Positions 10,415-59,414 of a stretch of DNA of 64,000 bases are shown here, piece after piece. The stretch comes from Escherichia phage PNJ-6. The notes under the pieces are model-generated. The model was not told the DNA's origin, made no database searches, and worked only from the letters and a program-made list of their open reading frames with translations. Each line of letters begins with the position of its first letter. The first letter of the stretch is position 1. The stretch is taken from the sequence record OQ076693; one strand, given 5' to 3'. A program made the translations under genes and the position numbers.

Positions 10415-11332
10415 TCAGAATTCATTAATTACACTTGTTAATTTAGAAAGACCAGATTTTACAAAGTATGAATAAATCTTGCCTTTAGGTTGTGGTTTAT
10501 ATGAGTTATAATACTCTATAATGGTTGAAGCAATATTATCAGGGATATAATCAAAATCAATGAGAACCAAATTTTCTTGGTACCGTTTATATTCTTCTGC
10601 ACTTAATAATACTTCAGCTTGAGAACGGTCATTGGCAATTGCTTCAATAATCGTTGTTTTCATGCTCGGAGTTCGTTCACCATCAACTCTGGTAAACCAG
10701 AAGTCGCCACGAACTCGAACAGATGCAACGCCATCTTTACGGTCACCTTTAAGAATTTTAGTCATGCAATCAATTTCAGCAGAACCGTTCTTAATTTTAA
10801 CCCATTTTTTCTGTGGTGGCGACCACTGTTTAACGTTAGGATATTTGTGTAATTGTGTAAAGTCACCGTCTGATGCAACAATACATACCTTATGTCCAGC
10901 TAATGACAAATATTTAGTTAATACACCGATATGGTCATCCGCTTCATACTTGTCAATATCCATTACAACGTATGGCATGTATTTCTTAATCTCATCAACA
11001 ACTTGACGGAGCGCAGTAAAATATCCTTCCCAATCCCACTTTGAAGCTTCACGATCGGTTTTACGATTTTTCTTGTAATAGTAAGCAAAGTCACGACGCC
11101 AATAACCTGAAGTAGCATTATCCATACACAATACAAATTTTGTATAGCCTTGCTTACGGAACATCACTACGTTTTTACGAATTGAATTCAAGATTACATG
11201 GCGAACCATCGGAACAGTAATTTTATCGCCATCTTCAAAGTTGTTTAATGCGGCTGCCAATGCAATGTTACTAAAGTCGGCAAGTGCAATACCTTCTTTG
11301 TAATCTTCATCCAACATCATTTCTAAATCCAT
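10415..11332 (-). CDS. rnh: RNase H / 5'-3' flap exonuclease
   Basis: 305-aa ORF with FEN-family acidic clusters (CMDNATSGYWRRD; IVASDGDFTQL); divergent from gene 34 as in T4. Confidence 0.88.
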   Translation of the reverse strand: MDLEMMLDEDYKEGIALADFSNIALAAALNNFEDGDKITVPMVRHVILNSIRKNVVMFRKQGYTKFVLCMDNATSGYWRRDFAYYYKKNRKTDREASKWDWEGYFTALRQVVDEIKKYMPYVVMDIDKYEADDHIGVLTKYLSLAGHKVCIVASDGDFTQLHKYPNVKQWSPPQKKWVKIKNGSAEIDCMTKILKGDRKDGVASVRVRGDFWFTRVDGERTPSMKTTIIEAIANDRSQAEVLLSAEEYKRYQENLVLIDFDYIPDNIASTIIEYYNSYKPQPKGKIYSYFVKSGLSKLTSVINEF

Positions 11333-28767: not shown

Positions 28768-28789
28768 AATTACCCCTAAAGAAAAAAAA

Positions 28790-36612: not shown

Positions 36613-37098
36613 TCATTTTAGCAAAATAAAATCAACTTGTTCTGCCAATGAACGTCTAAACATTAATTGACAACTTCCGAGGATGAAATCAGGTGCTTCA
36701 TAGACCGCGATGTAGTATCCTTTAGCTTTCAAGAGTTCAACATCCACCTGGTCATCAAACCAGGCATAAACCGCGTCAACACTTTCAAATCCAAAATAAA
36801 ACCCTTGAGCCCAATCTTCACCCAATTCAAATGTGTGCTCAATTCTATAGTATCTTAAGATATTTTGTTCAAGGAGTTTGTCTTCATTTACTGTAGGACG
36901 ATTAGGGACATTGTAGTTGTCGCCATGATGGTAGAAGTTACCTGAGAGTATTCCATGCTTATCAAGGAACTCCCATGTTTCTTCAGAGTTGTCGGTGCCC
37001 GACCAACCGTATGGCGAACGAGGTTCTTTATTCCAAGAGGTTTCCCCAAATTCTGACGGCTTTACCGTCTTCGATAGCAATTCCTGGTAATGATTCAC
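36613..37098 (-). CDS. hypothetical protein
   Basis: 161-aa ORF; early promoter at 37165-37193. Confidence 0.5.
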   Translation of the reverse strand: MNHYQELLSKTVKPSEFGETSWNKEPRSPYGWSGTDNSEETWEFLDKHGILSGNFYHHGDNYNVPNRPTVNEDKLLEQNILRYYRIEHTFELGEDWAQGFYFGFESVDAVYAWFDDQVDVELLKAKGYYIAVYEAPDFILGSCQLMFRRSLAEQVDFILLK

Positions 37099-37164
37099 GT
37101 TGAGTACAAAAACTACGTTCTACGCGGTAAACTAACATATTATTCTCCTCTGGTTGATATGGTT

Positions 37165-39431: not shown

Positions 39432-40745
39432 TCAAATAAAATGGACGTCAAACCGACCACGAGTTGTGCCGACATACAATAACTGTTTAGCTAATTCTGA
39501 ATCGGCGTAATGGATACACGGTGTATAAACAAAGGCCGTGTCAACAGACATACCCTGGGCCTTATGGAAGGTTGATACTGGTAGTGCCTTCACCTTAGTG
39601 AACATACGTTTAGCATCCCAGAATTCGCTCCATGGAGCTTTACCACCTTTATTCCAAAATTTGTATGTTTCTGCGGTCTTAGCCAAAAACAAATTGAATT
39701 TATAAAGCTCTTCTTCAGAAGAAATAACCTTTATATCTTCGCGGATGTATTCTTCATCATCCCCATACGTTTCTACTGTAAGATTCCAGTATCGTATCAT
39801 ATATTCGCCTGAAACACCACGTGCTTTAACGAATGTAGACGTTTCTACAGCATCTCGAATACGAACGAATTGACCGTTATTGAAAAGCATTTCGGTCATA
39901 TTTTTACCATCTAGCTTATATGTCTTAGTAAACGGCTCTTGTAGAACAATGACTTCGTCTTTAATAAATGGTTTTTCTGTTTCAAGAAGTTTTCGGCGAA
40001 TAATTGAATTTAACTTGTCCACCGACTTATTTGTGAATGCCATCATTCGATTTTCGAAAAGGTCTTCAGGAGTTTTAACGACGTTAAAATAGTTCATCAT
40101 ATACGATTTAAGGTCTGTATATCCGTGAACACCGTGCCCATCAACTACTTTATCGTAAATCCATTTGCCATTACGAATATCAGTCGCAACATCAATAATT
40201 GGTGCATTGCTACGTTTAACTTCTGTAAGGTTGCATTGCACGAAGTCTTTGTGAGTGAAGAAAGGACTTAGATACGCAGTTGATTCGCCTGGGTCTACCG
40301 GACGAATCTGGCATCGGTCGCCGATTCCAATTACTGTACACCATTTAGGGATACTAGCTAACATTATTTTAAACAGAGAACGGTCGCACATTGACGCTTC
40401 ATCAAATAACAGTACACGACACAAGGCTAAGTCTGGAACCTTTTTCTGTTCAAATAATACGTTTTCTTCGTATGTAGTTGGGTTGATTTTAAGAATGCTA
40501 TGAATAGTCGATGCTTCTTGACCAGCAAGTTTGCTTAGAACCTTTTTAGCAGCATGTGTAGGGGCCGCTAAAATAATACCTGATTCTCCGGCAGAAATAA
40601 GAGCTTCAACGATGAATCTAGTAAGGGTTGTTTTACCTGTACCAGCAGGCCCATTAATAGTTACGTGATGTTTCTTTTCTTTAATAGCGTTCATAACAAC
40701 GTTGAAGGCGTTTTTCTGGCCTTCAGTCAAATCATCAAATGTCAT
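39432..40745 (-). CDS. dda: Dda SF1 DNA helicase
   Basis: 437-aa ORF; Walker A (GPAGTGKTT), Walker B region (LLFDEASM), SF1B helicase motifs. Confidence 0.9.
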   Translation of the reverse strand: MTFDDLTEGQKNAFNVVMNAIKEKKHHVTINGPAGTGKTTLTRFIVEALISAGESGIILAAPTHAAKKVLSKLAGQEASTIHSILKINPTTYEENVLFEQKKVPDLALCRVLLFDEASMCDRSLFKIMLASIPKWCTVIGIGDRCQIRPVDPGESTAYLSPFFTHKDFVQCNLTEVKRSNAPIIDVATDIRNGKWIYDKVVDGHGVHGYTDLKSYMMNYFNVVKTPEDLFENRMMAFTNKSVDKLNSIIRRKLLETEKPFIKDEVIVLQEPFTKTYKLDGKNMTEMLFNNGQFVRIRDAVETSTFVKARGVSGEYMIRYWNLTVETYGDDEEYIREDIKVISSEEELYKFNLFLAKTAETYKFWNKGGKAPWSEFWDAKRMFTKVKALPVSTFHKAQGMSVDTAFVYTPCIHYADSELAKQLLYVGTTRGRFDVHFI

Positions 40746-41053
40746 CGTAAAGTCCCTGCAATTGGAATACTAACAATACGGCCTGTGTCCAGGATTCGTT
40801 GATACAATTTTTGCGTCTCCGCATCTAGTTTAATGCGTTTCATTTCAAGCTTATTAAACCAGAACTTACGCGGAGTTTCGACCATTCTTAGAACTCCCAT
40901 TTTTAAATCTGTTTTATACTGGGTTTTCAAAGTATCGAAAACTTTATCTGCAATATCCTTTCTAAAAAATACTGCAGGACGATGCTCATCAAGTGGAACC
41001 GGGACAGTAAATCCTTCCATATCTCGATAAACTATTGCATATACATAAACCAT
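40742..41053 (-). CDS. hypothetical protein
   Basis: 103-aa ORF, ATGA-coupled to dda. Confidence 0.5.
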   Translation of the reverse strand: MVYVYAIVYRDMEGFTVPVPLDEHRPAVFFRKDIADKVFDTLKTQYKTDLKMGVLRMVETPRKFWFNKLEMKRIKLDAETQKLYQRILDTGRIVSIPIAGTLR

Positions 41054-41055
41054 AA

Positions 41056-41803
41056 TTAACCTTTAATAAGTTGGAATAATGATGCGCTAAGTGGTAAGCC
41101 ACGTTTCAATTTTAATTTACCAATGAAACCGATCTTTTCAAAACGTTGCAGACCTTGGATAACTTTATCATATGTATCGAAAAGCGATTCAGCGTCAGTT
41201 AATTTAGTTTTAGTTTTCCAGTCAGAGCCTTTAAGAAGAACGTTGAGTTTAGTAAGTTCATGGCCTTCTGCTTGATGTGAGCCATTAATGCGTGCTTTCA
41301 AAGCAACAATTCTAAGTTTAGATTCGTTAGATAAAGGTTGATTTTTCATCATGTTCGCCATATGCTTAACACGATTTTCACGTTTTGCTCGGATTTTTAA
41401 AATAGTACCATAAACCTTTTTAATTTGGGCCCATTTCTTCTCGTCGAGATTAAGTTTCTCTACTTTACGGGCAGAAGGATTAGCGATACGTCTTGCAATG
41501 GCATCACGTTTTTCAATAAGTTCTTCTAATGTTAAATCAGAACGAGCCGTGTTATATTTTTTTCTTAACTGGGATAACATTACCTTTAATGTAGCCTATA
41601 TCATTATTAAAACGTTCTAAGGATAATTTCTCACCTTCAACAGAGTTATTGAAAGATTCACCTGAGTAAGCGCAGACCTTTTGATCAAGAATGTTTTTAA
41701 GGTAATTAAAGTCTAAGTTAAAATCCTTAGAGCGTCTCTTCGCAGAAGCTCTGGTGTGGTCAAGACGACGATTGATTTTGTTAATTTTATTATTAGATAA
41801 CAT
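41056..41803 (-). pseudogene. HNH-type nuclease-like gene split by a frameshift at an A7 tract (two ORFs 41552..41803 and 41056..41580)
   Basis: Upstream ORF has a degenerate HNH_3-like motif (KVCAYSGESF...LSLERFNNDIGYIKGNV) and stops right after it; the downstream 174-aa ORF is in the +1 frame and overlaps it at a run of 7 A (41557-41563 on the + strand). Confidence 0.4.
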
Positions 41804-41852
41804 AATATTTTCCTCTGTCTTACGGACGTTAGGTCATTTAGCTGATGGGTCT

Positions 41853-41881
41853 ATAATATCATGCCCTCAGGTAGTGTACAC
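41853..41881 (-). promoter_or_regulatory. T4-type early promoter variant (-35 GTGTAC, 17 bp, -10 TATTAT)
   Basis: rc of 41876-41881 is GTGTAC; rc of 41853-41858 is TATTAT; upstream of the HNH-like ORF. Confidence 0.45.
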
Positions 41882-41955: not shown

Positions 41956-42564
41956 TCAGTAACCGACAATAGACAGATTCCAGATTGTATAACGTCCATC
42001 TTGAATAATAGAATCTACACGCAGTGTAGTCCCTATAGGGAGCATAAATTCACATTCGTCGGATATAAGTCTAGCATTAGACCGTCTTGTCGCTTCAGGG
42101 AAAGCTCCATTGAACTCACAAGATGGCGCAGCCAGAATCATGTTAAGCATATGTTCACGGAAGTTGAAAGCAAATGGTGCATCTTTGATACAGAACATAT
42201 TAAATGTTCCGTAAAAATTATATGAAGCGAAGTTACGTGCTACACCAAACACCGGACTAAAGCTCATTACTCTGTCAAATTTAATAATACTACCAATGCC
42301 TTTATCATCGAGTGTGGCCATAGTTTTCTTAGAGATTCCACGATACATTGTCTCAGGAACAGAAGACGTCCAATTTCTACGAACGATTGAACTTAACTCC
42401 TGTTGAATACAGTCTGGCTTGTTTTCCATACACTGCCACAGTACACTTTGTTCAATGTCGCTGAATTGACTATCAATTTCGTACTGCAATACATCTTGAT
42501 ATTCAGGGTTTTGAGCACGACGAACCATTTCTTCAATTTCACACTCATTATACGGCATAAACAT
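41956..42564 (-). CDS. ADP-ribosyltransferase, ModA/ModB-like
   Basis: 202-aa ORF with R-S-E triad arrangement (YRGIS; SFSPVFG; ECEFMLP); T4 modA/modB position between dda region and soc; only one copy. Confidence 0.55.
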   Translation of the reverse strand: MFMPYNECEIEEMVRRAQNPEYQDVLQYEIDSQFSDIEQSVLWQCMENKPDCIQQELSSIVRRNWTSSVPETMYRGISKKTMATLDDKGIGSIIKFDRVMSFSPVFGVARNFASYNFYGTFNMFCIKDAPFAFNFREHMLNMILAAPSCEFNGAFPEATRRSNARLISDECEFMLPIGTTLRVDSIIQDGRYTIWNLSIVGY

Positions 42565-42723
42565 TTAGGTTTCTCCTGTGGTTGATAAAGGGTATATTAT
42601 CATCATCGGAAGAGTTTGTACACTAAAAATTCAACATTTTCAAATGAATGATTTTGTTAGGTATTCGCGTTCTTGAAGTTCAGATTGACATGTCATGATA
42701 GACCTCCATTTAAAGATAAGCCT

Positions 42724-42752
42724 ATCATAACACGAGAGGAGGGAATGTAAAC
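42724..42752 (-). promoter_or_regulatory. T4-type early promoter (-35 GTTTAC, 17 bp, -10 TATGAT)
   Basis: rc of 42747-42752 is GTTTAC; rc of 42724-42729 is TATGAT; about 160 nt upstream of the modA-like ATG; a second promoter-like element lies at 42594-42623. Confidence 0.4.
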
Positions 42753-44018: not shown

Positions 44019-44244
44019 CCCAACGGATTTCGGCGTTAAATTTGACGTCTTCGCCTTCCATCATGAATGAATGCACGATTACATCATCATAATATCCAAG
44101 ACCGTATTTCAACGAAACTTCTTGAGCAATCAAAGCACCTAATGTGTTATTAGGTTTAATCCAACGATTTAACATATTGTTCTCCTCTTGAGTAAGTAAG
44201 AATATCTTAACACAGTTTTTAGTGGTTGTAAACTGTAGAAACAA
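43948..44244 (-). CDS. hypothetical protein
   Basis: 98-aa ORF; overlaps downstream ORF, start may be the internal ATG (MLNRWIKPNN...). Confidence 0.4.
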   Translation of the reverse strand: MFLQFTTTKNCVKIFLLTQEENNMLNRWIKPNNTLGALIAQEVSLKYGLGYYDDVIVHSFMMEGEDVKFNAEIRWDDGGVRFVRGTINAYDAEEVVCC

Positions 44245-44250
44245 AAAAAA

Positions 44251-44270
44251 AGGAATCCCGAAGGATTCCT
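44251..44270 (-). terminator. intrinsic terminator downstream of soc
   Basis: AGGAATCC-CGAA-GGATTCCT; minus strand has a run of 8 U after the hairpin. Confidence 0.7.
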
Positions 44271-59233: not shown

Positions 59234-59414
59234 GTTGTGGTCCTCATTGGTAAGTAGGAGTATTGTACACTATTCTAGTTAAAGCATTCATACTTTGCTT
59301 GTAGTCCAATCATAATCCATCCGATTACAAGTGTTGGAATCATTACTGGAGCTTAACGGCTCCAGTAGATAGTCATGACAAGCATCAATAGTAAAAGTCC
59401 TATTGTTATTGCTT

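Follow-up and report, generated by a model that had tools for sequence, protein, structure and literature searches.

The srd gene of Escherichia phage PNJ-6 is divided between two open reading frames by one extra A in an adenine run

RESULTS

Two open reading frames at the srd locus

The DNA analysed is a stretch of 64,000 nucleotides from Escherichia phage PNJ-6 (sequence record OQ076693), which we call the window. On its minus strand two open reading frames, ORF1 and ORF2, overlap across a run of seven adenines (A7), with the coordinates and sequence given for them in the original prediction (Table 1). The frame of ORF2 is +1 relative to that of ORF1. The junction on the coding strand is GTT AAG AAA AAA ATA TAA, with the adenines of the run lying at 41563..41557; ORF1 finishes as ...GNVIPVKKKI before its stop codon, and ORF2 opens with MLSQLRKKYNTARSD. 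Both predicted products are basic, with pI values of 9.9 and 10.3. The two ORFs are identical in sequence to NCBI entries of Escherichia phage PNJ-6, WBM23522.1 for ORF1 and WBM23521.1 for ORF2, and GenBank carries them as separate coding sequences, each named 'putative anti-sigma factor'.

Table 1. Coordinates of the features at the srd locus of the window
Feature	Position	Strand	Description
ORF1	41552..41803	-	83 aa: Srd residues 1-82, one out-of-frame Ile, TAA
ORF2	41056..41580	-	174 aa: out-of-frame MLSQLRKK (8 residues), then Srd residues 83-248
A7 homopolymer	41557..41563	-	T7 on the + strand; site of the one-base insertion
srd	41056..41803	-	748 nt here versus 747 nt in relatives; out of frame by one inserted A
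Shine-Dalgarno-like GAGGA	41811..41815	-	8 nt ahead of the srd ATG; read from the sequence
Promoter-like TGTACA-16-TATTAT with TG	41853..41880	-	Upstream of srd; consensus scan
N-terminal HNH-like (beta-beta-alpha) domain	41482..41803	-	Residues ~1-107; bisected after residue 82
C-terminal helical region	41056..41442	-	Helices H121-153, H159-191 and H203-222, conserved tail, stop codon

The junction of ORF1 and ORF2 is not a chance overlap, because the two match adjoining parts of a single Srd protein in the relatives: ORF1 is 100% identical to residues 1-82 of that protein, and ORF2 98.8% identical to residues 79-248. When the frame is corrected the resulting 248-amino acid protein matches phrog_1400, 'Srd anti-sigma factor', over residues 3-248 (E = 1.4e-99), and is 99% identical to three database proteins of 248 amino acids. 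A segment of 901 nt around the junction has matches in 159 phage records, and in 158 the match covers 80% or more of the segment; the corresponding feature in these records is annotated 'Srd anti-sigma factor' or equivalent. The gene order in the window is dda (39432..40745), dda.1 (40742..41053), srd and modA (41956..42564). In phages RB69, JN02, PHB12 and F2 srd is one 747-nt coding sequence flanked by modA and dda.1, and the window is itself of the genus Mosigvirus (RB69-like T-even phages), with ~97.5% identity to Escherichia phage 308Ecol101PP over 24 kb.

ORF1 and ORF2 are thus one T4-type early gene, srd, split by a single extra A. The prediction of a single gene interrupted at a homopolymer, sitting where T4 has srd, was correct on both counts, and the gene is srd itself, as it is annotated in RB69. 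The alternative that had been set beforehand as the test of this, two ORFs that are independent in the relatives also, fails: in all relatives examined srd is one uninterrupted frame, and in the window the frame of ~245-250 codons expected of srd is broken. The gene is already known, and its A7 allele is already in GenBank in the form of the two coding sequences. For T4, PMC13232886, with reference to Qi et al. 2015, describes Srd as a protein that attaches to the N-terminal half of host RNase E and promotes the decay of host mRNA.

The start of the complete gene is preceded by Shine-Dalgarno-like and promoter-like sequences (Table 1). The number of promoter-like sites in the region is not above that expected from shuffled sequence, and it is only the position of the one upstream of srd that is suggestive. 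The ATG of ORF2 is preceded only by AAAGG at a poor spacing of 2 nt. Lacking a properly spaced ribosome-binding site, ORF2 is unlikely to be translated independently.

The adenine run in related phages

How general is the A7 run among phages that carry srd? At the corresponding position RB69, JN02, PHB12 and F2 have AAG AAAAAA TAT, that is six adenines (A6) where the window has seven, and A6 is found in every intact srd allele with a readable run. Searched with 81 nt that have the A7 run at their centre, 156 close phage records give no match of 99% identity or better, so that the A7 form is present in none of them; the matches listed cover 80 nt, the length expected with A6. With the N-terminus of ORF2 as query, tblastn finds 681 phage records that encode srd. 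Among its best-ranked alignments none has an N-terminus of the ORF2 type, the alignments starting at residue 5. A 248-amino acid srd is present in all ten of the contigs that encode the exact ModA of the window and extend as far as srd. Homologues with identities down to 40% also have Srd as a single protein, in 34 sequences of 231-254 amino acids and, in addition, one partial sequence of 171 amino acids. In IMG/VR and in the JGI metagenomes the exact A7 pattern is absent; the A6 pattern is itself rare there, with one and two matches, respectively, so that the zero for A7 says little.

The inserted base is the only change of consequence in the gene. With it removed, srd of the window encodes the consensus of 17 distinct Mosigvirus alleles with no amino acid change, and its two private substitutions are both synonymous. 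The lesion is therefore either a very recent event or an error, and not the mark of an old pseudogene. Among the intact alleles the standing variants number 30 synonymous to 12 non-synonymous (71% synonymous).

Alleles of seven and five adenines in other phages

The A7 allele is not confined to the deposited genome. Identical 83- and 174-amino acid ORFs, with the A7 run between them, are found in the Logan assemblies of SRR32936262 (a contig of 38.5 kb) and SRR32936258 (3.5 kb). These are adjacent accessions with one haplotype, and we count them as one independent confirmation; a literature search found no paper mentioning either run number. The haplotype is distinct from that of the window, differing at five positions within srd and by ~3% in the flanks. 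All five srd differences are synonymous, as expected for recent derivatives of intact alleles, and this would fit continued selection on a gene still being expressed as well. We considered the five differences as a signal of selection on the A7 allele and rejected it, since variation among intact alleles is already largely synonymous.

In the Logan contig 41 genes over 20.5 kb were compared, and all but srd and dda are uninterrupted. The lesion in dda, at about 10950-10960 of the contig, is a change of GAAGCTC to GAAGGCCC near codon 46, which leaves the N-terminal 48 residues and residues 46-437 in different frames; it is a complex change and not a miscall of a long homopolymer.

The run has also been altered in the opposite direction. 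Escherichia phage AV115 (OR352945.1, 9132..9877, minus strand) has five adenines (A5) where its relatives have six. The product is an 89-amino acid fragment ending ...VKKNITRLVLI, and the gene is annotated as an 89-amino acid 'putative anti-sigma factor' and a 101-amino acid 'anti-termination' coding sequence. Further truncated srd products fall into the same protein clusters, one of 141 amino acids with a frameshift at AAAAAGG and one of 152 amino acids that is a C-terminal part. The presence of A7 on a second haplotype, together with A5 in AV115, favours a hot spot over a one-off error, and the data point to srd as a dispensable gene whose adenine run is prone to slippage.

Integrity of other genes in the window

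The genes of the window were compared with those of 308Ecol101PP (76 genes) and HX01 (23 genes). Of these ~99 comparable genes just one besides srd is interrupted. It is a conserved early gene of the Y00F family encoding 174 amino acids (36616..37162, minus strand), in which C3 has become C4 at 37044-37047 (+ strand), so that the first 31 residues and residues 26-174 lie in different frames. The C4 insertion is found in none of 146 phage records, and the broken pieces have no exact-sequence match in the protein collection searched. In the Logan strain with the A7 allele the Y00F gene is intact (PF26820 in the Logan contig). The genes compared show these further mismatches: a gene absent from the window, a gene that is replaced, a gene that runs off the end of the window and a small ORF in which an inverted hairpin has altered the sequence. 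Genes in the neighbourhood of srd are thus found broken strain by strain, the Y00F-family gene in the window and dda in the Logan strain.

Runs of at least seven identical bases occur eight times in the 64-kb window. Homopolymer length differs from that of the compared relatives in 5 of 61 comparable runs, and two of the five differences are gene-breaking. Outside the two broken genes, a T8 run at 1318-1325 lies between genes and is T7 in relatives, an A8 run at 28782-28789, again between genes, is A7 or A5, and an A9 run at 44243-44251 has 11 or 7 adenines.

Two further points of variation were observed. The hairpin at 59346-59365, CTGGAGC-TTAACG-GCTCCAG with a 7-bp stem, has its 6-nt loop inverted with respect to OR062945.1, where the loop reads CGTTAA; it is located within a 47-amino acid ORF annotated 'putative phosphosugar isomerase' in OR062945.1. 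At 42565-42751, between modA and the next gene upstream, the window does not have a second Mod-type ADP-ribosyltransferase gene (modB-like, 193 amino acids, ~500 bp) that adjoins modA in RB69, 308Ecol101PP, DCP548 and the Logan strain. The modB-like gene is missing from phage F2 and MZ189261.1 also, and we therefore regard this as a presence/absence polymorphism.

The N-terminal domain of Srd

The structure of Srd was examined in an AlphaFold2 (AF2) model of an intact homologue that is 99% identical (mean pLDDT 87). In the model, strands at residues 60-64 and 76-80 are followed by a helix at residues 81-87, a beta-beta-alpha unit predicted with confidence, and this is the fold that characterizes the HNH or His-Me finger nucleases. 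The frameshift falls at the start of the helix, so that the 83-amino acid product should have neither the helix nor the C-terminal helical region. In the alignment of homologues V79, K80, K82, Y83, N84 and R87 are invariant. It had been proposed that ORF1 stops just after its HNH-like motif; instead the conserved domain itself is severed, the break lying after invariant K82 and before Y83, N84 and R87, which are invariant too.

Sequence comparisons give a graded picture of the relationship to nucleases. The N-terminal ~100 residues match PHROG families annotated as endonuclease (E = 3.6e-18), HNH endonuclease (1.1e-14) and endonuclease VII (7.7e-11), and all three alignments span the frameshift site. 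A profile of the N-terminal domain on its own has as its best match in the PDB the 'HNH endonuclease' 4h9d, at a marginal E = 0.043, and the full-length protein and full-length profile find just coiled-coil and ribosomal noise there. In Pfam neither ORF1, ORF2 nor their fusion has a relevant family at E ≤ 1, HNH_3 included, and for ten distant relatives of the N-terminal domain no nuclease family, HNH or otherwise, is found at E ≤ 0.01. A Foldseek search of the PDB with the Srd model yields nothing significant, because the helical C-terminus dominates the comparison. In BFVD the matches are to Srd of other T4-like phages, to many small uncharacterised phage proteins and to one protein annotated as an HNH endonuclease.

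The domain is widespread. It is found in at least 1,323 proteins in one profile search and at least 5,271 in another, most of them of ~100-180 amino acids, and among 120 matches listed of the at least 1,323 none has a Pfam domain. Its motif is SA..R..F.L...C.Y[ST]G...[DE]R.[DN]..GY..GNV....N..[KR]. Arg64 of Srd aligns with the histidine of the 'DH' motif of 4h9d and is invariant both among Srd proteins and in an alignment of 13 N-terminal domain sequences. Of the four zinc-binding cysteines Srd retains the first alone, C44; Ser47 stands in place of the second, and Lys80 and Tyr83 in place of the other pair. From these alignments the N-terminal domain of Srd looks like a derivative of an HNH (His-Me finger) domain that has no catalytic histidine and has lost three of four zinc cysteines. 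The original description of ORF1 as degenerate and probably non-catalytic HNH-like is reasonable as a statement of ancestry; membership of HNH_3 is not supported, there being no match in Pfam. A literature search found no paper linking Srd with HNH domains.

DISCUSSION

Origin and consequences of the A7 allele

The explanation we favour, with a probability of about 0.6, is that the A7 allele is real, that it arose recently and at strain level by slippage at a run that is a hot spot, in a gene the phage can do without, and that it is a loss-of-function allele or a strong hypomorph. Slippage during replication would have extended A6 to A7 within the codons for Lys80-Lys82 and shifted the frame. 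Ordinary translation would then produce an 83-amino acid fragment without the helix of the beta-beta-alpha unit or anything downstream, and the remaining 166 codons would be left in a frame that has no credible ribosome-binding site. The outcome would be an inactive or strongly hypomorphic allele, and not a conserved recoding device. We infer that the A7 allele exists in the phage itself and was not introduced by a base-calling error, and that it yields little Srd or none.

A less probable explanation, but one to be taken seriously, is that the phage truly has A6 and an intact srd, and that the extra A arose because the homopolymer was miscalled in the deposited genome. In favour of this, the homopolymer has gained a single base, removal of that base gives a perfect consensus Srd, and the A7 form is missing from all of the close relatives counted above. 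Moreover, a second private +1 homopolymer insertion breaks another conserved gene, that of the Y00F family, which is the pattern of a platform prone to indels. Set against this, A7 is found in two further assemblies whose haplotype is not that of the window, in a contig with just srd and dda broken among the genes compared, and all the other comparable genes of the window are uninterrupted. Two further readings treat the pieces as something other than a damaged srd. If the gene had undergone a functional fission, the N-terminal HNH-like and C-terminal helical pieces would be made and would work as two separate proteins. Both are open and are annotated as two coding sequences, and ORF2 has an ATG of its own; yet that ATG has no properly spaced Shine-Dalgarno sequence, the cut lies within the beta-beta-alpha fold, between invariant residues, and not at the domain linker (residues 108-120, of low confidence at 110-116), and the two-ORF arrangement is not seen among the best-ranked of the 681 records. 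We consider fission very improbable. A decaying mobile HNH gene of the homing-endonuclease type, which was one of the options of the original prediction, is scarcely credible and was not borne out. The N-terminal domain is indeed related to the HNH, endonuclease and endonuclease VII families, to 4h9d and to PacI. However, every relative examined has srd flanked by modA and dda.1, and the gene is not an insert that is present in some and absent from others: four annotated close relatives and the ten contigs that share ModA all have it there, and the 681 records encode it. In addition the loss of histidine and cysteines is ancient, being common to the Srd family and to the inspected small relatives, and the gene is intact apart from one base.

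Alternatively, the A7 allele might still be expressed, or the run might be a reversible switch, by any of three routes. tRNA-Lys might slip by +1 on AAA-AAA-A ahead of AUA, which would yield exactly the wild-type sequence VKKKYNT; slippage of RNA polymerase on the run might bring part of the transcripts back into frame; or slippage between A5, A6 and A7 might act as a phase-variation switch of Srd dosage in phage populations. As read from the sequence, a +1 shift on the run recreates the consensus exactly, alleles of both signs (+1, A7 and -1, A5) have been deposited, and the two A7 haplotypes differ solely at synonymous sites, as would be the case if the protein were still made. The last of these is unremarkable, however, given the 30:12 ratio of standing variants. 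The shift site is also not conserved, the intact alleles having A6 and the A7 form being absent from the 156 close records and from the best-ranked of the 681; no Shine-Dalgarno-like stimulator is present within a few nucleotides of the run, and the sequence downstream, as read, shows no obvious conserved element. The A5 allele of AV115 would need the opposite shift for its rescue. Besides, efficient slippage in transcription, or sliding of ribosomes, would generally take a run longer than seven. Taken together we think continued expression or reversible switching unlikely. The programmed frameshift that had been offered as one option is thus not supported, since the A7 arrangement is not conserved and AV115 has A5.

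The boldest form of the switching idea is that the adenine run of srd is a functional contingency site, at which slippage among A5, A6 and A7 turns Srd off or down to a low level, that level being sustained by tRNA-Lys or transcript slippage in the +1 direction. We judge this to be decidedly unlikely. If it were true, Mosigvirus populations would be tuning an activator of RNase E that in certain hosts carries a cost or is detected, and selection, not chance, would explain why A7 is present on two haplotypes and A5 in a third phage. A literature search found no paper linking Srd with defence-escape mutations.

If the A7 allele is a slippage mutation as we propose, a phage carrying it is probably Srd-null or a hypomorph, which is relevant if such a phage is used to study the shut-off of host mRNA. 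In the annotation, the two 'putative anti-sigma factor' coding sequences should become one srd, flagged as frameshifted. A domain resembling an inactivated HNH fold is in addition a starting point for mapping the contact of Srd with RNase E or RNA.

Comparison with known systems

The closest comparison is with srd of T4 and RB69 (also named dda.2; NP_861707.1 in RB69). The gene occupies the same place between modA and dda.1, and the reconstructed protein of the window likewise has 248 amino acids. The 901-nt region is 98.4% identical to that of RB69, with srd differing at eight positions plus the inserted A. Unlike the gene of RB69, that of the window has the extra A in the codons for Lys80-82 and so is read as ORFs of 83 and 174 amino acids.

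The N-terminal domain shares its predicted beta-beta-alpha core with the HNH and His-Me finger enzymes, such as 4h9d, PacI (3m7k) and the members of PHROG 3118, 3322 and 1035. In register with 4h9d, the CxY[ST]G of Srd corresponds to CHYCG, [DE]R to DH, GNV to GNV and N..[KR] to CNNRK. Srd differs from these enzymes in having arginine in place of the catalytic histidine, one of four zinc cysteines, no match to HNH in Pfam and a long helical C-terminal region, and its known activity, in T4, is the binding of RNase E and not the cleavage of DNA.

In common with the programmed sites of prfB (+1) and dnaX (-1, at A AAA AAG), the two frames of srd meet at an adenine run in lysine codons, where a +1 slip would give full-length Srd. 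In contrast to those sites the split of srd is not conserved, no stimulatory Shine-Dalgarno sequence or structure stands out next to it on reading the sequence, and an A5 allele of the opposite sign exists. The variation in length resembles that of homopolymer contingency loci and slippage pseudogenes, with A5, A6 and A7 found among isolates and each length other than A6 knocking out srd. It departs from the contingency loci in that there is no evidence for srd of switching within a population or of selection for variability, and A6 is overwhelmingly the dominant form.
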